From Gemmata obscuriglobus (GTDB taxonomy: Bacteria; Planctomycetota; Planctomycetia; Gemmatales; Gemmataceae): a stretch of 32,000 nucleotides of DNA. The notes beneath the pieces were generated by a model. It was given only the letters and a program-made list of their open reading frames with translations. It did not search any database and had not been told where the DNA came from. Position 1 is the stretch's first letter; each line of letters starts with the position of its first letter. The translations under genes and the position numbers were made by a program. Below are positions 2,496 to 30,096 of the stretch, piece after piece. The DNA is taken from contig NZ_CP042911.1 of the NCBI RefSeq assembly GCF_008065095.1, positions 3,360,001-3,392,000 of the forward strand, written 5' to 3'.

Positions 2496-3608
2496 CTATT
2501 TCGCCCACATGCTCTTCGGGATGCGGAACCGGAAGTCTTCTTCTGAGTTTGTGTCCGCCCAGGTGCCATCGGGTTTTCGCTCTTTCCATTTCGGCCACAC
2601 CGTCAGGATCAGCTCGTCCGCCTCTGCGGCCTTCGCCTCGAACGTGATCAGGTCGGTCACTTCGGGTTGCTGGGCCGACAATTCGGCCTCGTGGCTCTGA
2701 CGCCCGAGCACCTCGCCGAACCCGAACGAGGTGAGCACCTTGTAGGGCTCGCCGCCCCGCGCCGGGCGTAGCGCCAAAGCAGGGTTGGCGAACGCCGCTC
2801 CGATGCTGCTCGGCACGAACGGCGGTTTCTTCACCCGCGCGGCCGGGTCCGCGAGTTTTACACGCACCGCGACGCACAACAGGTCTTCCGACGAGTCCCC
2901 GTTGCCGTGGAGCGTGCGCACCTTGACCTTCCCGAGCCGGACGCCCTCGACGCTCACGCTCACGGGACCGACGGTCGCCCACCGCCCCGGTCCGGCATCG
3001 ACCGTGGGCGGTTGAGCGTCCCATACTTCCTTCGGAATGCGGATTTTGAACGTCCCGGGGCTCTTCTGGATCGCATAGTTCCCGTTCGGTTGCATGGGCT
3101 GGTAGCTGGCCGGCACCTCCAGGGTGAGGTCCCCCGTTGCGCCGGGGATCGACTCGAACGTGAGCAGGTCGGTCGATTCGCTGTTCTCGGCGTTGAGAAC
3201 GGTTGTGCCTGTGCGGCGCGCGCTGACCGCGTCGAGTCCCCAGGCGGCCACCGGTTTGGCCTCGCGCCCCTGGCCGTCGATCAGGCGCAGTTTGTTCTCG
3301 CCGAAAGAGAACTGGATGCCGCCGTCCTGTTGGATCGCGGGCTGCTTGACGGGCATGCTCGTGTCGAGCAGTTTGAACCGCGTTTTGATTACGAACACGT
3401 CGTCCTTCGATTCGCCCTCTTGCCCCATCATTCCCCGGACCCGTACCTTGCCGTGCCGGACGGATTCAACAGCCAGTCCGAGAGGGCCAACGCGGGCGTA
3501 GCTCCCGGCCCCGGCGTCGGCGGTGTCGAGCCGGTCGATCAGGCCGCGCTTGCAGCCGATCGAACCGACCAGAACCAGCAGGAGTAACGAAGCGGCGAGC
3601 GCACGCAT
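2496..3608 (-). CDS. lipoprotein with an internally duplicated ~165-aa beta-rich domain
   Basis: 370-aa ORF. The signal peptide with lipobox is MRALAASLLLLVLVGSIGC. Two homologous halves are visible: VGPLGLAVESVRHGKVRVRG...TDLLTFES...FKIRIPKEVW versus VGPVSVSVEGVRLGKVKVRT...TDLITFEA...FRFRIPKSMW. Confidence 0.8.
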   Translation of the reverse strand: MRALAASLLLLVLVGSIGCKRGLIDRLDTADAGAGSYARVGPLGLAVESVRHGKVRVRGMMGQEGESKDDVFVIKTRFKLLDTSMPVKQPAIQQDGGIQFSFGENKLRLIDGQGREAKPVAAWGLDAVSARRTGTTVLNAENSESTDLLTFESIPGATGDLTLEVPASYQPMQPNGNYAIQKSPGTFKIRIPKEVWDAQPPTVDAGPGRWATVGPVSVSVEGVRLGKVKVRTLHGNGDSSEDLLCVAVRVKLADPAARVKKPPFVPSSIGAAFANPALALRPARGGEPYKVLTSFGFGEVLGRQSHEAELSAQQPEVTDLITFEAKAAEADELILTVWPKWKERKPDGTWADTNSEEDFRFRIPKSMWAK

Positions 3609-3796
3609 GATGTCACCTGTGTTTGAAGTGGCGGTACGTTTTTACCCCGGCTGCTGCTGCTCTCATAGCCCAGCGCCGCCCGGAAGTCGAACCGGGGCGG
3701 CGGAGCTTCTGGGCCGGGGCGCTTCCCTTTGACGGACCAAACGCCGCCGACGCGCCTACAACGATCGCACCTGCTCGTTTTGTTTCCGGAGCCGCC

Positions 3797-23368: not shown

Positions 23369-24328
23369 GTGGCAAAGAAACCAGCGGCCCCGGTTCCGGT
23401 TGCCGAACTTGTGCGGCTCGCGCTGTTGAACGTCGCGAACGCCACCGGCGACGTGAAACTCGGCGGCAAGGGCGGGCTGTTCCCCACCGCGAGCGGCCCG
23501 AACAAAGAGGCGGCCGACGCGTGCATGACCGCCGCCGTCCCCCTGCTGACGGTACTCCGGACCGAGGGGAAGGCGCAGATCGTCGGGCTGACGCCGGCGG
23601 GCTTCGAGCGGATCGCGGGCGAACTCGCCGAGGACAAGGTCGGACCGCTCGCGAAAGCGATCGCGGCAGCGGCACCGGCCGCGGCGCGGATCGAGTTCAT
23701 TCAGTCGGTAATCGGTCGAACTCCGTTCGCGGCGCCGGAACTGACTCCGCTGCTCGAAGAGGCGGTTGCGGCCGAAAAAGCCGAGCAAGAAGCGAGAATT
23801 GAAGCGGCGAAGAAGCGCCGCGAGGCGGAAGAGATCGCGCTCGCCGCACTGGAACGGGCGAAAGCCCTGCTCGAAGAGCGCCGCCGGAACCGGCTCGACG
23901 CGCTGCGTCGCGAATACGAACTCGAAGGCGCGAAGGCGACCGAGTTGCCCGAGCCCGCGCCGCGTGTGGAACCGCGCCCGGAGCCGAAGGCCGCCGCGCC
24001 CGCACCGGCATCGGCTCCGGAACCCAAGACGGACGAGGAGCGCGACTTCCGGCGGTACACCGCGGACCGACTCGCCGCCGCGTGGCGCGACGCCTGGACC
24101 GACGGGAAGACCGAGGGCCGCGACTACCTCGAAACGGCGATGTGGAACATCCGCGGGATGCAAATGATCGGCGAGCCCGGGCAGCAGATCGCGTTCAACG
24201 GCCGGGTCCACGAATCGGAGCAGCCGGCCGCCCCGGGAGACCCGCTCACCGTGCTGCGCCCGGGCTGGCTGCTCAAGACCGACGACGAGGATTACGTCGC
24301 GCTGAAGGCCGCGGTCGGCGACCTGTGA
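23369..24328 (+). CDS. hypothetical coiled-coil protein with GrpE-like C-terminal domain (319 aa)
   Basis: The GTG start has GGTGAGGA upstream. The N-terminal ~110 aa are globular. A long charged helix follows (AEKAEQEARIEAAKKRREAEEIALAALERAKALLEERRRNRLDALRREYELEG), then a Pro/Ala linker. The C-terminus is RGMQMIGEPGQQIAFNGRVHES....PGDPLTVLRPGWLLKTDDEDYVALKAAV. It resembles the GrpE beta-domain pattern G.e.I...G..FdP..HeA....PG.vv.V...GY.l..r.lRpA.V.V (comparison from memory). Confidence 0.6.
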   Translation: MAKKPAAPVPVAELVRLALLNVANATGDVKLGGKGGLFPTASGPNKEAADACMTAAVPLLTVLRTEGKAQIVGLTPAGFERIAGELAEDKVGPLAKAIAAAAPAAARIEFIQSVIGRTPFAAPELTPLLEEAVAAEKAEQEARIEAAKKRREAEEIALAALERAKALLEERRRNRLDALRREYELEGAKATELPEPAPRVEPRPEPKAAAPAPASAPEPKTDEERDFRRYTADRLAAAWRDAWTDGKTEGRDYLETAMWNIRGMQMIGEPGQQIAFNGRVHESEQPAAPGDPLTVLRPGWLLKTDDEDYVALKAAVGDL

Positions 24329-24356
24329 TACCCGTGTCGGCCGGTTGTGATCATTT

Positions 24357-24429
24357 TTGTGTCACGGACGCGCGCGTCCGTGTGCCTTCAGCGCCCGAAG
24401 CCGCACCGACCGGAACGTCGGTGCCACAA
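24357..24429. repeat. divergent member of the nested-palindrome family, copy 3
   Basis: The left arm is TTGTGTCAC-GGACG-CGCG-CGTCC-GTGTGC (24357-24385). A 17-nt spacer follows. The right arm is GCAC-CGACC-GGAA-CGTCG-GTGCCACAA (24403-24429). The termini match copies 1 and 2 (TTGTGKCAC / GTGCCACAA). The inner hairpin stems differ but remain self-complementary. Confidence 0.6.
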
Positions 24430-24481
24430 AGACCAAGCGCCAGTAACGGGCGCTCATAACCGGACCGGTGTGAGGTTCTCA

Positions 24482-25912
24482 ATGGCCGAGCGCGTGTTCT
24501 GCGTGGACTTCGGAACGTTCTACACCAAGGTCGCGCTCCGCTCGGCGCCCCAGGAAGCGGGGGCTCTGGTCCCGTGCTCGGACGAAGGGTTGGAGTTCTG
24601 GGCGCCCACTGTGGTCTCGGCGGACTGGACGCGGGGCGAGGCGCGTCTGGAGTTCGGGCACCGTGCGGCCGATGTCAAACCGGGCGGCAAGGTCGTCGTT
24701 TACTCGAACTTCAAACGGGAGCTGTTCGCTCCGCCGCCGGCGCAAGGCCCGGACCTCCACCCGATCGACGCGCTGTTGCGGTCCGAAGAGTTCGAGGCGC
24801 TGGCCGCCAAACACGGCGTGCTGCCGGCGTGGGTCGCGGGCCTCCGGTCGCTGACCACCTCGGCCCGGACCCTCTTCGGCACCCCGGACGCGAGCCCCGG
24901 CGGCGCGGCGGCCCGGCGGCAGGAAGAGGCGAAGCGGCTCACCTACCACTACTTCAAGTGGCTCCGGGAGTGCGTGCTGAAGGCGTGCGAGCGGCTCCCG
25001 CACACCGCGCTGAACTACAAGGACATCCCGCTCCGGATCACCGTCCCGCTGTTCGGGCCGATCGAAACGCTCGCCCAGCACCCGGGGTGCGTGCGGCTGC
25101 GCGACGCGCTGGCGTCGGCCGGCTGGCCGCTCGCCGACCCGCTGTTCGTGTCGGAGCCCGAAGCCAACGCGGTCGGGATCTTGACGAAGGCGGTCAACGC
25201 GCTCACCGTCCGCACGAAGAAGATCAACTTCCGCGAGATGTTCAACCGCGGCCCGCTCATCACGGTGCTGGCCGGCGACGCGCACCACCCGACCTACCGC
25301 GCCCTGGTGATCGACGTGGGCACGTTCACGAGCGACTTCGCCGCCCTCGGGATCGACACCGGCGGGAAAGAGGTTGACACGTCCAACGGTGCCGGTTTCG
25401 GGGTGACCCAGCAGTCGATCGCGTTCGGCATTTCGGACCTCGATGCGACCGTGCGGGACGCGCTGCCCGAGGAGAAGCGGGCCGCGCTGAACGGGATGGC
25501 GCGAAAGGACTTCGCGGCGTTCCAGGTGAGCGCGTACAGCGCCGAGACCGGTTACCGGATCGGCCCCGGGAAGGTGATCGGCGGCTCCGCCGACCGGCCG
25601 ATCGTCGAGAGCTGCCTCGCCGCCTTCTGCACGCGCCTCACGGACGAGACCACGGCCTTCCTCCAGCAACTCGGCCCGGCGTCGATGCAGGAGCTGATCC
25701 TCACCGGGGGCGGCAGCAACATCCCCGCGGTCCGCGAGGCGCTCATCAAGGCCGCCGCCGCGACCCCGGGCGCCGCGTTCGTGAAGACCCACGCCCCGGG
25801 CCTCAAGAAGGTGAAGTCCGGCCCGCCGGTCGACTCGCTCGACGACAAGTTCGCCCGCGGCGCGACCGCGCTCGGCGGTGCCAGCCTCTACTTCGAGCGC
25901 GAGTACTTCTGA
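24482..25912 (+). CDS. Hsp70/actin-fold (ASKHA) ATPase, nucleotide-binding domain only (476 aa)
   Basis: ATG at 24482 has GTGAGG upstream. The upstream part of track ORF 24347.. covers the repeat element. The motifs are phosphate-1 VFCVDFGTFYTKVAL, connect-1 VSEPEANAVG, phosphate-2 ALVIDVGTFTSDFAAL, adenosine ELILTGGGSNIPAVREAL and connect-2 ARGATALGGA. No Hsp70 substrate-binding domain is present. Confidence 0.8.
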   Translation: MAERVFCVDFGTFYTKVALRSAPQEAGALVPCSDEGLEFWAPTVVSADWTRGEARLEFGHRAADVKPGGKVVVYSNFKRELFAPPPAQGPDLHPIDALLRSEEFEALAAKHGVLPAWVAGLRSLTTSARTLFGTPDASPGGAAARRQEEAKRLTYHYFKWLRECVLKACERLPHTALNYKDIPLRITVPLFGPIETLAQHPGCVRLRDALASAGWPLADPLFVSEPEANAVGILTKAVNALTVRTKKINFREMFNRGPLITVLAGDAHHPTYRALVIDVGTFTSDFAALGIDTGGKEVDTSNGAGFGVTQQSIAFGISDLDATVRDALPEEKRAALNGMARKDFAAFQVSAYSAETGYRIGPGKVIGGSADRPIVESCLAAFCTRLTDETTAFLQQLGPASMQELILTGGGSNIPAVREALIKAAAATPGAAFVKTHAPGLKKVKSGPPVDSLDDKFARGATALGGASLYFEREYF

Positions 25913-26022
25913 CCCGCCCCGCGGCAGGGTGGGTTTGCGTGGTAGCGGGTTCGTGTGTACCATTCGCACAGTCACGGCCACGCGATGGTTCGCAACGCCG
26001 GCGCCACCACCGAACACCCGCT

Positions 26023-27576
26023 ATGTCTTCACAACCCGTCACGTTCCCGTGTTCCTTCTGCACGCGCCGGATGGGCGTACCGGCCGAACTCCTCGGGCGA
26101 CAGGTCCGGTGCCCGCACTGCAAGCAGGTCGTCGTCGCGCCCGCCACCGCCGGCGCCGCCCCGGAGATCGTGCCCCCGCCTCCGCCCCCGCCCGCTCCCG
26201 TTCCCCCACCGGAGCCAGAACTGCGGTCGTTCGACCTGCCGGTGCAGAAGGAAGAGGCCGACAGCATCCTGAGCGACCCCCACGAGTCCGAAGACGAGGT
26301 GTTCGGGTCCAGTACCGCCTCGCGCCTTCGGACCCTGACGCGCGAGCCGGCCCCGGAACCGGTGGCCCCGGCGCCCGCCCGCCCGATCAACGCCGGGCCG
26401 GCACCGGTCGCGGGTGGGTCGGCTCCCGCCCACCCCTTTAGCAGCTCGCTCCCGCTCCCAAACCTGCCGGCGCCCGTGAAGGCACCGCTCCCGCAACCGG
26501 TCGCGAAACCGACGGCACTCGCCCCCGCCGACGATCCCAAACCTGCACCGCCGCCAGCGCCAGCGGCCCCACCGTCGCCGCCGAAATCGACGCCCGCGCC
26601 GCCCCCCGCGCCCGCACTGGACAACCCGTTCGCGCTGCTCAGCGCCATCCAGTCTGCCGCGAAGACGCCCGCGCTCGCACCCGCCGTCGAGGAGCGGCTC
26701 GAAACCGGCGAAGACGAGCCAGCTCAAACGAAGAAGCGCAAGGAACGAGACGAGGAGCCTGAAGAGCGGCCGATGCGGGCGACCTCTGGTCGCGCCGGCG
26801 GTGGTGCCGGAGGCGCGAAGACCGTGCTGCTGGTGGTTCTGGCGGGCTACGCGTTCATCGCCACCGTGGCCGCCGTGTACGGACTGTTTTTCCGCTCCGG
26901 GACGCCCGCCGGGCACCCGCTTTCCACCATCCCGGACACCTTCGGCGAGTTCGACCCCGTGAGCCGGAAGAAGGTCACCCAGGCGACGTTCCCGGTAGAC
27001 GGCCCGCTGCCGCCCGAGTTGCGCGCCGGGCTCGGCAACACGATCTCCATCGGTCAGCTCGAAGTCCAGCCGACGAAGGTCGAGAAGCGCAAGCTCGCGA
27101 TCCGGGTCGCGGGGACCGACGACCGTGAGGCCGAGCGCACGATGTACCCCGGCCCGGCGCTGGTCATGACGCTCGACATCAAGAACACGTCGCCGGATCT
27201 GCCGATCCTGCCGATGGACCCGGCGTTCACCCGGCGCGAGGCCGCGAGCGATCAGCCGATTACCCGACTCGTCACGAGCAAGCGGGCGTTCTACGGCGGC
27301 GAAATCGAGTGGCCGTGGCCGAAGGGGGTGAAAAGGAAGATCGAGGTGCAACAGGGCAACGACGCGATCCCGCTGCGACCGGGCGAAAGCCGCGAGTACG
27401 TGGTGTTCACGGCCGCCGGCGCGGACCTGATCCGCACCGCCGAGGCCGAGAAAGGCCCGTTGCAGTGGCGGGTGCAGTTGCGCCGCGGGCTGATCGAGTA
27501 CAAGGGGAAGGAGGTCCCGGTTACGGCGGTGATCGGGGTGGACTTCCAGGCGGCCGACATCCGCACGCCCGACTGA
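26023..27576 (+). CDS. zinc-ribbon / proline-rich linker / single TM / beta-rich extracytoplasmic domain protein (517 aa)
   Basis: ATG at 26023. The N-terminus CSFCTRRMGVPAELLGRQVRCPHCKQVV is a CxxC-x17-CxxC ribbon of the MJ0042 type. About 230 aa of Pro/Ala-rich sequence follow. The TM helix is VLLVVLAGYAFIATVAAVYGLFF. The C-terminal ~200 aa have a beta-sandwich-like pattern (DIKNTSPDLPILP...LRPGESREYVVFT), reminiscent of DUF4352-type domains. Confidence 0.75.
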   Translation: MSSQPVTFPCSFCTRRMGVPAELLGRQVRCPHCKQVVVAPATAGAAPEIVPPPPPPPAPVPPPEPELRSFDLPVQKEEADSILSDPHESEDEVFGSSTASRLRTLTREPAPEPVAPAPARPINAGPAPVAGGSAPAHPFSSSLPLPNLPAPVKAPLPQPVAKPTALAPADDPKPAPPPAPAAPPSPPKSTPAPPPAPALDNPFALLSAIQSAAKTPALAPAVEERLETGEDEPAQTKKRKERDEEPEERPMRATSGRAGGGAGGAKTVLLVVLAGYAFIATVAAVYGLFFRSGTPAGHPLSTIPDTFGEFDPVSRKKVTQATFPVDGPLPPELRAGLGNTISIGQLEVQPTKVEKRKLAIRVAGTDDREAERTMYPGPALVMTLDIKNTSPDLPILPMDPAFTRREAASDQPITRLVTSKRAFYGGEIEWPWPKGVKRKIEVQQGNDAIPLRPGESREYVVFTAAGADLIRTAEAEKGPLQWRVQLRRGLIEYKGKEVPVTAVIGVDFQAADIRTPD

Positions 27577-27685
27577 AATCCTGAAATCCGGCGCGGGGGT
27601 TGAACCTCCCGGCCCCGTGCGGCATCATGAACAACGCACAGGCGTGCAGGCTGAGGATCAGGTTCCGGCTCAACCGCGGCCAAGA

Positions 27686-27830
27686 AGAGTGTGGGTTCGA
27701 GTCCCACCCCCGCCACTCCCTTTGGGAAGTCAAAAGGGGCCAGTAGAAAGGCGAACGGCGACCGAAGATGTTGTTGCCCCACTTTCCCCTTGTGCCTTGT
27801 TTCTGGCGGGGTAGCCCAACGGTAGAGGCG
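27686..27830 (+). ncRNA. tRNA-like half-set X: T-arm + acceptor 3' strand, 90-nt insert, then acceptor 5' strand + D-arm
   Basis: The T arm is GTGGG-TTCGAGT-CCCAC (27691-27707). CCCCGCC (27708-27714) plus A follows, with no encoded CCA. Downstream, GGCGGGG (27805-27811) is a 7/7 complement, followed by TA and the D-arm GCCC-AACGGTAG-AGGC (27814-27829). No anticodon-type stem was found. The identity is uncertain (pseudo-tRNA or structured RNA). Confidence 0.4.
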
Positions 27831-27909
27831 ATACGGCTGCCCCCAGGTTCAGGTTGTCACGCCAAGCTCAAACCCGTGCCGAGGTGCCCAATCGAACGAC
27901 CGGCTCCAA

Positions 27910-27988
27910 CCAACCTATAGTGGTTCGAATCCATTCCCCCGCGCTTCGCCCGACCCACGCGGGGGTTGCCTAACGGTAAGGCAGTTGG
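27910..27988 (+). ncRNA. tRNA-like cloverleaf core encoded in circularly permuted order (acceptor stem closed by a 14-nt loop; YrlA/Y-RNA-like tRNA mimic candidate)
   Basis: The order on the + strand is as follows. CCAAC (27910-14), CTAT, then T arm AGTGG-TTCGAAT-CCATT (27919-35). CCCCCGC (27936-42), G, then the loop CTTCGCCCGACCCA. C, GCGGGGG (27959-65), TT, then D arm GCCT-AACGGTA-AGGC (27968-82). A, then GTTGG (27984-88). All four stems pair (7, 4, 5 and 5 bp, with one G-U). U8, A14, G18G19, A21, G53, T54T55C56, A58 and C61 are all in place. Confidence 0.55.
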
Positions 27989-28070
27989 TCAACAAACTCA
28001 AAGCCGGCGACCGGATACTGTGAGCACTCCCTGAGACGGCACACCTACACGCGCGAGCGAGAGGGACCCA

Positions 28071-28113
28071 GCCCCGGCGAGCCGGCGAAAGCTCGACCGG
28101 GGCGCTTTTATTT
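28071..28113 (+). terminator. strong rho-independent terminator ending the tRNA-like RNA locus, 8 nt before the cca-family ATG
   Basis: GCCCCGG-CGAGC (28071-28082), the loop cggcgaaa, then GCTCG-A-CCGGGGC (28091-28103). That is 12 bp with one bulge, followed by gc TTTTATTT (28106-28113). Confidence 0.7.
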
Positions 28114-28121
28114 CCGCACCC

Positions 28122-29381
28122 ATGACCGACCGCGAGTTTGCTCTTAGTGTGGTCCGCACCCTTCAGTCCGCCGGGTTCACCGCTCTCTGGGCCGGCGGGT
28201 GCGTGCGCGACGAGTTCCTCGGGCTCGTGCCCGAAGACTACGACGTGGCCACGTCGGCGCGACCGGAGCAGTTGCGCCCGCTGTTCCGCCGGCGGAACGA
28301 GATCGGCGCGCACTTCGGTGTGGTGCAGGTCATCGGCCCGAAGAAGGCCGACGGCACCTGGCACACCATCGAGGTGGCGAGCTTCCGGTCCGACGGCGCG
28401 TACACCGACGGGCGCCGCCCGGACACCGTCACCTTCTCCACGCCCGAAGAGGACGCGCAGCGGCGCGACTTCACCGTCAACGGAATGTTCTTCGACCCTG
28501 TTCGGAACGAGCTGCTCGACTTCGTGGGCGGCCGGGCGGACCTGGACGCGAAGGTGCTGCGCGCGATCGGCGACCCCTTCGCACGGTTCACCGAGGACAA
28601 GCTCCGCATCCTGCGCGCGGCCCGCATGGCGACGCGGTTCGGGCTCGCCATCGACCCCACCACCCGTGACGCCGCGCAACAAATGGCGCCGCAGGTGAGC
28701 GTGGTTTCGGCCGAGCGGGTTGCCGAGGAGTTGCGGAAGCTGTTCGCCCACCCGAACCGCACACGCGGGCTCGCGCTGCTTCGCGAGCTGGGGCTCATCG
28801 AACCGATTTTGCCGGAACTGACACCCTCAGCGGATCGTGCCAGCGCGGCACTCGCGGCGCTGAGCGAAGTGGGCGGGCGGCTCCCCTTTCCTCTCGCGTT
28901 CGCGGTCACACTCCACGCGGTCGGCAGAGCGGTCACGGAACGCGTCGCCGAGCGGCTGAAGCTCTCGAACGTTGAGAGCGACCGTCTCTGCTGGCTGGTG
29001 GCGAACCAGAGCGTGCTGACCGATGCCGAGGTCATGCGCCCGAGTAAGCTCAAACCGCTGCTGGTTCACCCGGGCATCGACGACTTGCTCGCGCTCCACC
29101 GGGCGCTGGCGACCGCGACCGGCGGGAGCCTGGCCCCGGTCGAGTTCTGTACACGCGTCCTGCGGGACACGCCGCCCGAGGAACTGAACCCGCCGCCCGT
29201 GCTGACCGGGGCGGACCTGATCGCCCGGGGGCTGAAGCCCGGTCCGGCGTTCAAGCGCCTGCTCGATGCCGTTCGGGAAGCCCAGCTCGAAGGGCGGGCG
29301 GCGACGAAGGAGCAGGGGCACGCCCTGGTAACCCGGCTGCTCGCGGAACCGGGAGACGCGCCTGAACCACCGCCGGGGTAG
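28122..29381 (+). CDS. cca: CCA-adding enzyme / poly(A) polymerase family (class II) tRNA nucleotidyltransferase
   Basis: 419 aa. The N-terminal head motif is LWAGGCVRDEFLGLVPEDYDVATSARPEQ. The blocks FRSDGAYTDGRRP, RDFTVNGMFFD, F.EDKLRILRAARMATR are canonical for the PolyA_pol/Cca family. CCA-adding versus A-adding or PAP specificity cannot be decided by eye. Confidence 0.85.
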   Translation: MTDREFALSVVRTLQSAGFTALWAGGCVRDEFLGLVPEDYDVATSARPEQLRPLFRRRNEIGAHFGVVQVIGPKKADGTWHTIEVASFRSDGAYTDGRRPDTVTFSTPEEDAQRRDFTVNGMFFDPVRNELLDFVGGRADLDAKVLRAIGDPFARFTEDKLRILRAARMATRFGLAIDPTTRDAAQQMAPQVSVVSAERVAEELRKLFAHPNRTRGLALLRELGLIEPILPELTPSADRASAALAALSEVGGRLPFPLAFAVTLHAVGRAVTERVAERLKLSNVESDRLCWLVANQSVLTDAEVMRPSKLKPLLVHPGIDDLLALHRALATATGGSLAPVEFCTRVLRDTPPEELNPPPVLTGADLIARGLKPGPAFKRLLDAVREAQLEGRAATKEQGHALVTRLLAEPGDAPEPPPG

Positions 29382-30096
29382 TTCGGCGGTCGCCGCGCAC
29401 CACTTCATGCCACCAGAAGTTGAGCAGCGTTCGCGCGGTCCGCGGCACCTCACGAAGGGACACCTTGCTCTCACCGCCGGCCCGCGGCCGGTGCGTGACC
29501 GGCAATTCCGTCACCTCCAGCCCCAACTGCCGCGCCCGGGTGAGCATCTCCGTGTTCACGAAGAACCCACGCGACTCCGGCATCAGCCCGGCCAGGGTGT
29601 CGCGCCGGAAGACCTTGAGCGCGCAATCCACGTCGCGGACGCGCGTGCCGAGCAGTGCGCGGGCCAGCACGTTATAGCCCCACGACAGGAACCGCCGGCG
29701 CCACGGGTCCTGCCGGTCCGCGCGGAAACCCACCACCACCGGTACGCTCCCCGCGTGTTCCGCCAACTGGGCCAGGTCGGTGAGATCGAACTGACAGTCA
29801 GCGTCGGTGAACGCGACCAGGTCGAACCGCGCCGCCTCGAACCCCGTGCGCAGGGCGGCCCCGTACCCGCGGTTCGTCGGGTGCCGCAACAGCCGTGTGT
29901 GGGGGGCGGCTTCCAGCGCCCGGCTCGCCTCAGTGGCGGTCGCGTCGGAACTGCCGTCGTCCACCACCAGGATCTCGAACCGCTCGAACGAGCGCCCGAG
30001 TGCGGCTTCGGCCTCGGCGATCGCGCGGCTGATGACAGCGGCTTCGTTGAACGCCGGGATCACCAGACTCAACCCGGTGCGCGTGAACGTGCCCAT
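29251..30096 (-). CDS. family 2 glycosyltransferase (dolichyl-phosphate mannose synthase-like)
   Basis: 281 aa. The blocks LSLVIPAFNE, FEILVVDDGSSDAT, NRGYGAALRTGF and AFTDADCQFD are the GT2 DxD-type signature. The C-terminal ~45 aa (Pro/Ala/Arg-rich) overlap the convergent cca 3' end. Confidence 0.85.
   Translation of the reverse strand: MGTFTRTGLSLVIPAFNEAAVISRAIAEAEAALGRSFERFEILVVDDGSSDATATEASRALEAAPHTRLLRHPTNRGYGAALRTGFEAARFDLVAFTDADCQFDLTDLAQLAEHAGSVPVVVGFRADRQDPWRRRFLSWGYNVLARALLGTRVRDVDCALKVFRRDTLAGLMPESRGFFVNTEMLTRARQLGLEVTELPVTHRPRAGGESKVSLREVPRTARTLLNFWWHEVVRGDRRTTPAVVQARLPVPRAAGLPGRAPAPSSPPALRAGLPERHRAGA

Follow-up and report, generated by a model that had tools for sequence, protein, structure and literature searches.

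The window analysed here is a 32,000-nucleotide (nt) stretch of the Gemmata obscuriglobus genome (contig NZ_CP042911.1, positions 3,360,001 to 3,392,000). On its + strand, between the stop codon of an open reading frame (ORF) at 25939-27576 and the ATG at 28122 of a gene of the cca family, lies a conserved non-coding RNA (about 27635-28113). It is built of two tandem helical domains, A and then B, and each is tipped by a tRNA mimic whose strands follow one another in permuted order. An earlier reading of the same DNA, here called the original prediction, had singled out 79 nt at 27910-27988 as a complete tRNA-type core, circularly permuted and with a loop-capped acceptor stem. Direct reading of the sequence finds every element that it described in its place. 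The 79-nt element is, however, the tip of one of two domains in a larger conserved RNA and no unit on its own.

The tip of domain B, module B (27909-27989, + strand), is a permuted tRNA-type core, recognised from its sequence, from covariation, RNAalifold and tertiary nucleotides, and with a covariance model. Read 5' to 3', the sequence runs from the 3' strand of an anticodon-type stem to the 5' strand of the same stem:

27910-27914, + strand: anticodon-type stem, 3' strand, CCAAC
27915-27918, + strand: 4-nt variable loop, CTAT
27919-27935, + strand: T arm, AGTGG/TTCGAAT/CCATT
27936-27942, + strand: acceptor stem, 3' strand, CCCCCGC, followed by G27943
27944-27957, + strand: 14-nt loop that caps the acceptor stem
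27958-27965, + strand: C27958 and the acceptor 5' strand GCGGGGG (27959-27965), giving 8 acceptor pairs in total
27966-27967, + strand: TT, the equivalent of U8-U9
27968-27982, + strand: D arm, GCCT/AACGGTA/AGGC
27983, + strand: A, position 26
27984-27988, + strand: anticodon-type stem, 5' strand, GTTGG

The anticodon-type stem gains a sixth pair from A27909 and T27989. The sequence of the module contains no anticodon loop, and the sequences that flank the anticodon-type stem are variable across homologues, unlike an anticodon loop. The acceptor stem carries G3-C70, and the D arm is full.

Comparative data carry the case for this fold. The covariation test, which the original prediction had proposed for related loci, was run on domain B of 25 distinct homologues (17 in an earlier version), taken from Gemmataceae genomes and metagenomes and aligned with MAFFT. 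Two controls were applied: 3' partners slid by 1-3 columns, which keeps the relatedness of the sequences, and shuffles (n=500). In the named structure of module B and domain B, 97.8% of the alignment cells are paired, compared with 40-45% with slid partners. Double-change cells number 117 against 34.4 +/- 4.6 in the shuffles, none of which (0 of 500) reaches 117; because the homologues come from related genomes such counts overstate the number of independent events, yet the slid-partner control still separates the structure cleanly. The covariation score is 0.413, and 0.150 in the shuffles. All four stems covary, with four compensatory pairs in the anticodon-type stem and three each in the T, acceptor and D stems and in the helix P-b at the base of the domain. 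The acceptor stem, for example, is written CCCCCGC/GCGGGGG, CCCGUCCG/CGGGCGGG, CCCCCAC/GUGGGGG, CCCCCUC/GAGGGGG or CCCCUGC/GCAGGGG in different homologues. Likewise, the anticodon-type stem appears as CCAAC/GUUGG, GAACAAG/CUUGUUC, AACCUUG/CAGGGUU or AGCCUCG/CGAGGUU, and the D stem as GCCU/AGGC, GUCU/AGAC or GCUC/GAGC.

RNAalifold returns the same cloverleaf with no structure supplied. The nucleotides that hold a tRNA together in three dimensions (U8, A14, A15:U48, G18G19, U54, U55C56 and A58) are present in at least 21 of the 25 module B sequences, and the Levitt pair A15:U48 is kept in 24 of them. A covariance model of module B scores 72-95 bits in all homologues, and nothing outside this RNA family exceeds 10.5 bits in 261 kb of flanking DNA. 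These results confirm that the permuted fold is real and under selection. Covariation thus supports an L-shaped tRNA-type core that is entered and left through the equivalent of the anticodon stem and has a loop-capped acceptor, as had been proposed from the single sequence. The proposal came with the caveat that an upstream GCGGGGT (27806-27812) also pairs at six of seven positions with the acceptor 3' strand of module B. That pairing exists, but as a canonical-order acceptor stem (27806-27812 with 27936-27942) it is paired in 65% of cells, the same as shuffles, with zero covariation, and we rejected it in favour of the permuted order.

The original prediction had also spoken of neighbouring units with near-identical acceptor strands. 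These are present upstream, but they are not mere repeats: they form a second permuted tRNA mimic, module A (27691-27829, + strand), supported by covariation, a sub-threshold match to the YrlA family and the module B model:

27691-27707, + strand: T arm
27708-27714, + strand: acceptor stem, 3' strand, CCCCGCC, then A27715
27716-27804, + strand: acceptor loop with a hairpin insert of about 90 nt
27805-27811, + strand: acceptor stem, 5' strand, GGCGGGG, then UA
27814-27829, + strand: D arm

The T and acceptor stems of module A have three covarying pairs each, the D arm is invariant, and 99-100% of the cells are paired. Acceptor variants include CCCCACC/GGUGGGG, CCCCUUC/GAAGGGG and UCCCGCC/GGCGGGA, and UAGCCCAAC.GGUAGAGGC and GGUUCGA are invariant. 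Under the module lies a covarying basal stem (27676-27681 with 27835-27840). The covariance model trained on module B alone detects module A at 31-47 bits in loci where the loop is short. Those alignments span the T arm, acceptor and D arm and skip the positions of the anticodon-type stem, so the two heads have the permuted core in common and differ in how they connect to their basal helices. The acceptor loop of module A is 11-13 nt long in many species, and in others it is a hairpin of about 90-100 nt with a purine-rich arm and a pyrimidine-rich arm (window 27716-27804, L001 at about 3585-3683, L008, L016/L041, L018, L024 and L027; L numbers denote homologous loci). L008 and L026 are near-identical except in the insert, so that its gain or loss is rapid, and it may represent an expansion segment or a mobile hairpin.

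The extent of the whole RNA was drawn from nhmmer searches, a full-length alignment of 16 sequences and its consensus fold, which contains 34 covarying pairs. It measures about 480 nt with the module A insert and about 390 nt in relatives that have none. Outside the two heads, its parts are:

27600-27628, + strand: putative promoter, TTGAAC-N17-CATCAT, suggested by the conservation pattern
27641-27654, + strand: P1, 5' strand, GGCGUG CA GGCUGA, paired by RNAalifold with 27849-27863
27849-27863, + strand: P1, 3' strand, UCAGGUU GU CACGCC (RNAalifold)
27876-27905, + strand: domain B basal helix, 5' strand, comprising P-a, P-b, an internal loop and P-c
27876-27881, + strand: P-a, 5' strand, GUGCCG, invariant
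27883-27889, + strand: P-b, 5' strand, GGUGCCC, with three covarying pairs
27890-27899, + strand: internal loop AAUCGAACGA, of which UCGA is conserved in most homologues and its U in at least 90%
27900-27905, + strand: P-c, 5' strand, CCGGCU, covarying
28002-28042, + strand: domain B basal helix, 3' strand, comprising P-c, a loop, P-b, a loop and P-a
28002-28007, + strand: P-c, 3' strand, AGCCGG
28008-28021, + strand: loop CGACCGGAUACUGU, which with AAUCGAACGA opposite makes an asymmetric internal loop
28022-28028, + strand: P-b, 3' strand, GAGCACU
28029-28036, + strand: asymmetric loop CCCUGAGA, invariant
28037-28042, + strand: P-a, 3' strand, CGGCAC
28025-28042, + strand: family-wide invariant 18-mer CACTCCCTGAGACGGCAC, identical in all copies
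28049-28059, + strand: small hairpin between domain B and the terminator (RNAalifold)
28071-28113, + strand: hairpin of the intrinsic-terminator type, GCCCCGGCGAGC ... GCUCGACCGGGGC, then UUUUAUUU, supported by covariation and a U run

We infer the 5' end from the pattern of conservation. TTGAAC (27600-27605) and CATCAT (27623-27628) are conserved, the 17-nt spacer between them and the 6-7 nt after the -10 are variable, and invariant sequence begins at 27636, which predicts a start near 27635. P1 closes domain A, with 99.5% of its cells paired; being almost invariant, it draws weak support from covariation, and a local CUGA...UCAG hairpin possibly competes with it. The basal helix of domain B is richer in compensatory change. 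P-c is written CCGGCU/AGCCGG, CCGGCG/CGCCGG, CCGGCC/GGCCGG, UCGGCU/AGCCGA or UGUCGGC/GCCGACG, and P-b has the consensus GGUGYYC/GRRCACU. The asymmetric loops between these helices, CCCUGAGA on the one hand and AAUCGAACGA opposite CGACCGGAUACUGU on the other, are invariant. RNAalifold also proposed local hairpins inside the basal helix (CCGG-CGA-CCGG and UCG...CGG). We rejected them for the inter-strand P-c because L001, L024 and L030 break the local hairpins yet compensate in P-c. In the hairpin at 28049-28059 all three pairs are compensatory and several sequences have broken cells, so that its support is weak to moderate. The terminator is a consensus hairpin of 12 bp, 8 of them compensatory, with a conserved U run, and it ends 8 nt before the cca ATG.

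Homologues were collected in three ways: at the loci of cca homologues, by scanning species-representative genomes for the 18-mer, and by a two-motif pattern in metagenomes. Upstream of cca the element is conserved in L001, L002, L004, L007 and L008; it is absent from this position in L005 (Frigoriglobus tundricola) and L006. The 18-mer CACTCCCTGAGACGGCAC retrieved 14 planctomycete loci, with carriers that include Gemmata algarum, Gemmata sp. IIL30, Urbifossiella, several Gemmataceae and Planctomycetia metagenome-assembled genomes (MAGs) and one MAG labelled Singulisphaera. The scan did not return G. obscuriglobus, though the window carries the 18-mer; presumably this stretch is masked in the set of genomes scanned. 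Five matches outside Planctomycetota (L010, L013, L021, L022, L023) were dismissed as chance, the element being absent there, and a scan of viral contigs with the 18-mer gave zero matches. The two-motif pattern, whose second half is the 13-mer core CCCTGAGACGGCA, yielded 14 metagenome loci; all 14 hold this core exactly and all 14 carry the element. In every planctomycete locus fetched, nhmmer recovers the full element. Throughout domain B, L027 (G. algarum) has exactly the sequence of the window. The whole element, its non-tRNA parts included, is kept across genera whose cca proteins share 58-87% identity.

Module B is more widely kept than module A. A divergent metagenomic clade (L029, L031, L033 and L039) retains P1, the basal helix and module B. 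Domain A of this clade (L029, 3370-3510) is reduced to a CCCCGCC/GGGCGG hairpin, and module A is here dispensable or remodelled. In another clade, L007 (3787-3872), L018 (3987-4074), L020 (320-407) and L036 (801-890), the D loops of module B read AAUCGCA, AAUCGUA or AACCGUA and the T loops UUCAAU, UUCAAUU or UUCAAGU, so that both partners of the tRNA elbow are altered together. The RNA of L009 (CAMDQN010000182.1), the MAG labelled Singulisphaera (Isosphaeraceae), is near-identical to that of the Gemmata sp. loci L004 and L015 and has Gemmata-type synteny; the contig or the bin label may be misassigned.

The gene immediately downstream, on which the original prediction was silent, belongs to the enzyme family that adds the CCA end to tRNAs:

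28122-29381, + strand: class II tRNA nucleotidyltransferase (cca/pcnB family), with Pfam domains PolyA_pol and PolyA_pol_RNAbd

Its best NCBIfam matches are CCA tRNA nucleotidyltransferase and PcnB, each below the curated cut-off, and its product is 100% identical to a G. obscuriglobus protein named 'tRNA nucleotidyltransferase/poly(A) polymerase' at NCBI. In about 20 of 26 loci the RNA is followed on its own strand by a cca gene, and this extends to the most divergent clade (L029/L039). The gene usually starts within 10 nt of the terminator, with gaps of 140-700 nt in L004, L020, L030, L029 and L039. The RNA is intact with no downstream cca in L015, L016/L041, L017, L018 and L035, where the neighbour is, for instance, a convergent kinase gene (L015), a PSCyt/PSD1 gene (L016/L041) or a convergent EF-G gene (L018). 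Conversely, L005 and L006 have cca and lack the RNA.

Elsewhere in the window are hisD, hisC and hisB, three ORFs that belong to no family, a GT2 glycosyltransferase, an Rrf2 regulator and a cysteine desulfurase. The three family-less ORFs (23369-24328, 24347-25912 and 25939-27576, all + strand) have zero matches in Pfam and NCBIfam. They are consecutive, show a coding-type G+C content at third codon positions (GC3), and fill the stretch from the his genes to the RNA. Many relatives have a homologue of the ORF at 25939-27576 beside the RNA, and in L006, which has no RNA, one lies beside cca. The cca gene (28122-29381, + strand) and the GT2 gene (29251-30096, - strand) overlap convergently by about 130 nt; a convergent overlap of about 100-135 nt is also annotated in L001, L002, L004, L006, L007 and L008.

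Permuted tRNA genes and two-piece transfer-messenger RNA (tmRNA) genes had been offered as precedents for the element, and neither fits. Circularly permuted tRNA genes occur in Cyanidioschyzon merolae, other algae and one archaeon, and their precursors mature by cleavage at a bulge-helix-bulge, ligation into a circle and opening of the acceptor loop; bacteria are not known to possess the splicing endonuclease that this route needs. The Gemmata RNA is like such a gene in that the 3' half precedes the 5' half, the acceptor is closed by a loop and the ends pair as an anticodon-type stem. It differs in having no anticodon loop, no bulge-helix-bulge motif and no known bacterial machinery for the purpose; its anticodon-type stem runs on through internal loops into the covarying P-c, P-b and P-a. 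Two-piece tmRNA genes are found in alpha-proteobacteria, some beta-proteobacteria and cyanobacteria, and share with this RNA the permuted order of T arm and acceptor, a segment between the acceptor strands and a long helix below. Unlike them, the Gemmata RNA has no tag reading frame, pseudoknot series or G3:U70, and it has a complete D arm and two tRNA-like domains. About 70 nt are left between domain B and the terminator, which gives no room for a tag frame. Neither in the window nor in L001-L004 did ARAGORN, which also covers permuted tmRNAs, find a tRNA or tmRNA, and the Rfam tmRNA families are negative; the permuted tmRNA model RF04321 reaches 15.9 bits on module A of L004 only (threshold 47). 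A weak Rfam match to mascRNA (13.8 bits) occurs in the window. The tRNA-like RNAs of MALAT1 (mascRNA) and MEN-beta differ in that their strands are in canonical order, they are released by cleavage, and they are unrelated in lineage and sequence.

The closest likeness is to YrlA, a bacterial Y RNA. YrlA RNAs have been defined by a GNCGAAN0-1G motif near the 5' end, by tRNA-like V, T, closed acceptor and D arms, and by an rsr gene within 4 kb; published YrlA genes lie within that distance of rsr on the same strand (Chen et al. 2014, PMC4201824). Wang et al. (2018) solved the tRNA-like domain of YrlA and describe the RNA as a tRNA in circular permutation whose acceptor stem is closed; they also point out how extremely its T and D stems are conserved (bioRxiv 10.1101/312249). 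The Gemmata RNA shares with YrlA the order of T arm, loop-capped acceptor stem and D arm, the entry and exit through an anticodon-stem equivalent that continues into a long helix, and the nucleotides of the tRNA elbow and tertiary core. A CGAA-containing motif on the 5' strand ahead of the tRNA-like part is a near-match to that of YrlA. This motif, AAUCGAACG (27890-27898), matches seven of the eight positions of the YrlA motif (PMC4201824). Its CGA core is invariant, but no homologue has the first G, which is replaced by A, C or U. In domain A, GGCUCAA stands where the YrlA model aligns GGCGAAU. In size and setting the two differ, since the Gemmata RNA measures about 480 nt, has two heads and usually lies beside cca, whereas Y RNAs measure 80-220 nt and YrlA has one head and lies beside rsr or rtcB.

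Further parallels come from Mycobacterium smegmatis, whose YrlA has an acceptor stem of 7 bp. This length makes the RNA a substrate of RNase P, and once cut it is trimmed and CCA-tailed in vivo; YrlA and YrlB are there processed from one precursor (PMC4201824). The Gemmata heads likewise have an acceptor stem of tRNA length (7 bp) and two tRNA-like modules in one transcript. As in M. smegmatis, a C is encoded directly after the discriminator position, so that adding CA would complete CCA. Processing was observed in the mycobacterium and is predicted here. Moreover, the mycobacterial RNAs lie upstream of rsr, and YrlB has a possible T arm only, whereas both Gemmata modules are complete in most species.

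With moderate confidence, we favour a stand-alone structured RNA of about 480 nt, proper to Gemmataceae-type planctomycetes, whose two tRNA mimics would serve as a scaffold or decoy. Its standing alone is supported by the conserved promoter-like hexamers, the covarying terminator and the loci that have the RNA or cca but not both, and the sub-threshold YrlA match and the near-match to the YrlA motif speak for the likeness to YrlA. In a manner analogous to Y RNA or YrlA, it may act as a modular platform for proteins. The two L-shaped heads would offer tRNA elbows and acceptor stems to enzymes that recognise tRNAs, and the invariant basal loops (CCCUGAGA and UCGA/CGACCGGA) may bind another factor, for which Ro60/Rsr is one candidate. 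After each acceptor stem of 7-8 bp comes a conserved R-C-U, which reads A-C-U in module A and G-C-U in module B. Together with the tRNA-like length of the stems, and by analogy with M. smegmatis, it makes opening by RNase P, trimming and CCA-tailing plausible. After cleavage of the heads, the nicked RNA would be held together by the acceptor helices. The enzyme for CCA completion would be encoded next door, and the position upstream of cca may reflect co-transcription or functional coupling with it.

Several observations weigh against this reading. A generic promoter (sigma-70) and terminator scan flagged neither TTGAAC/CATCAT nor a terminator on the + strand: the promoter was missed because only 8 of 12 positions match, and the terminator probably owing to the scan's loop or bulge rules. 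The single-sequence minimum free energy fold reproduces the permuted cloverleaf, but with a z-score of -1.27 domain B is no more stable than shuffles, and the values for the whole RNA (-0.02) and domain A (-0.06) are also non-significant. Thermodynamic stability is therefore no evidence for the structure, and where a single sequence cannot decide, the comparative data do. Within the acceptor loop of module B, GCUUCGCCCAA is kept in about 15 of 25 homologues, and such partial conservation is not expected of a spacer that is merely cut out. Module A is without its T loop and D arm in the L029/L031/L033/L039 clade, and in the L007/L018/L020/L036 clade module B has lost G18 of the G18-G19 pair; hence neither head is universally intact. 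When 27500-28150 was searched with permissive thresholds, the best Rfam match was YrlA (RF02553) itself, but its 17 bits (27690-27829) lie far below the cut-off of 69. Tandem tRNAs, and tRNA-like T and D arms that follow one another, are known to yield false YrlA matches (PMC4201824). In module B the T and D stems covary freely, whereas those of YrlA are nearly invariant in sequence. Genes for TROVE proteins, rtcB and PNPase are absent from the window ORFs and annotated flanks, so that the Y-RNA analogy has no protein partner to point to. The absence of a visible rsr/TROVE gene in the window, noted originally, was borne out by the domain annotation of its ORFs, and TROVE is likewise absent from the precomputed Pfam annotation of the L001-L008 flanks. 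A rough tblastn search of 309 kb of flanks with an approximate Ro60 sequence also found nothing, which is weak evidence.

Two further readings turn on Ro60. As a tentative possibility, the two-headed RNA would be a new class of large bacterial non-coding RNA that is independent of Ro60 and, instead of acting as a Y RNA, works with tRNA end maturation. RNase P would cut its heads, and the enzyme encoded immediately downstream would CCA-tail them; the RNA would then titrate, sense or regulate the capacity of RNase P or of CCA addition. Expression of cca would possibly be set through read-through of the terminator. That it is a bona fide Y RNA of the YrlA type, bound whole or as processed halves by a Ro60/Rsr orthologue encoded elsewhere, which it tethers to an effector such as PNPase or an RNA ligase, we regard as unlikely. 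The architecture is that of YrlA, and in L004 the sub-threshold match becomes a full-length alignment (model positions 1-114, 24.6 bits, E 0.005). The likeness of AAUCGAACG to the proposed Rsr-contact motif also counts in favour, as does its place on the 5' strand before the T arm, where YrlA has its motif, and M. smegmatis makes two Y RNAs from one precursor (PMC4201824). Yet 17-24.6 bits fall far short of 69, the matches fall on module A while module B is not reported by the YrlA model at E<=10, the first G of the motif is not conserved, the size is outside the Y RNA range, and neither the 32-kb window nor about 309 kb of flanks yielded a TROVE gene. Given the gathering score, the missing rsr linkage, the size and the covarying stems of module B, we do not file the RNA as a YrlA member. 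The suggestion of a YrlA-like mimic thus stands for the architecture, in that the RNA resembles YrlA-type tRNA mimics, and membership is not established.

The link to cca raises a different explanation, that the RNA is a cis-acting leader. Nascent tRNA mimics would be bound by the CCA-adding enzyme, RNase P or tRNA-related factors, and binding would control read-through of the terminator 8 nt before the cca ATG, an autoregulation by substrate mimicry. The same-strand position directly upstream of cca in most loci speaks for this, as does its persistence in the L029/L039 clade. In most loci the terminator U run ends 8-10 nt before the ATG, which leaves no room for a separate promoter. We nevertheless consider it quite unlikely. 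RNA and terminator are intact in loci that lack cca, L005 and L006 have cca and no RNA within the same synteny, and gaps of 140-700 nt separate the two in some loci; no conserved antiterminator alternative was seen, and closed acceptor loops are not substrates of the CCA enzyme unless cleaved first. In addition, most loci share synteny in related genomes, so that independent linkage events are few. Cis-regulation of cca as an added or sole function is possible, but the loci that have only one of the two weaken it. A precursor of a translational adaptor, either a Cyanidioschyzon-type permuted tRNA or a two-piece tmRNA that gains a free CCA end and is aminoacylated, is highly improbable and already largely refuted. 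The T arm and acceptor 3' strand do precede the acceptor 5' strand, the acceptor stems are of tRNA length, and module A of L004 matches the permuted tmRNA model weakly. The stem enters a covarying basal helix in place of an anticodon loop or bulge-helix-bulge, however, ARAGORN finds none and the Rfam tmRNA families stay below threshold, and G3-C70 with a full D arm and no space for a tag frame is not the tmRNA pattern. Finally, the locus might be a decaying tandem array of tRNA genes without present function, whose permuted fold arose by chance from G-rich acceptor strands that are nearly identical. For the locus as it now stands this is refuted, and we give it a probability close to negligible. 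The tRNA model RF00005 does match weakly in canonical order (27806-27943, 16.6 bits; 27649-27715, 15.2 bits; threshold 29). The permuted pairings are nonetheless 98-100% paired with many compensatory changes, whereas the canonical acceptor pairing behaves as shuffles do. The element, invariant 18-mer included, is conserved across genera, and neither ARAGORN nor Rfam finds intact tRNAs at the syntenic site in the relatives scanned. As ancestry the idea is plausible: YrlA has been proposed to derive from dimeric tRNA transcripts (bioRxiv 10.1101/312249). The match at 27806-27943 joins the 5' half of module A to the 3' half of module B, as a tRNA with an 81-nt insert replacing the anticodon arm. 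This canonical layout is consistent with descent from three tRNA genes in tandem, in keeping with the dimeric-tRNA model.

At gathering score, no Rfam 15 family captures the RNA (zero matches in the window and five loci). A literature search on Gemmata or planctomycete tRNA-like RNA, Y RNA, Ro60 or TROVE turned up nothing relevant, and no paper describing the RNA was found. Compared with YrlA-type permuted mimics, it is new in its size, its two heads and its linkage to cca, with no linkage to rsr found. Few non-coding RNAs that are conserved in bacteria exceed 400 nt and have a complex structure, and each of these has led to new biology. Two complete permuted tRNA mimics in one transcript also closely resemble the intermediate with tandem tRNAs from which Y RNAs are proposed to have arisen. 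If Gemmataceae lack rsr, the YrlA-type tRNA mimic would have a use that is independent of Ro. If they have it, this would be the largest Y RNA, the first with two heads and the first unlinked to rsr. Either way, the RNA gives a practical way to ask what bacterial Y RNAs bind with their tRNA-like domain.

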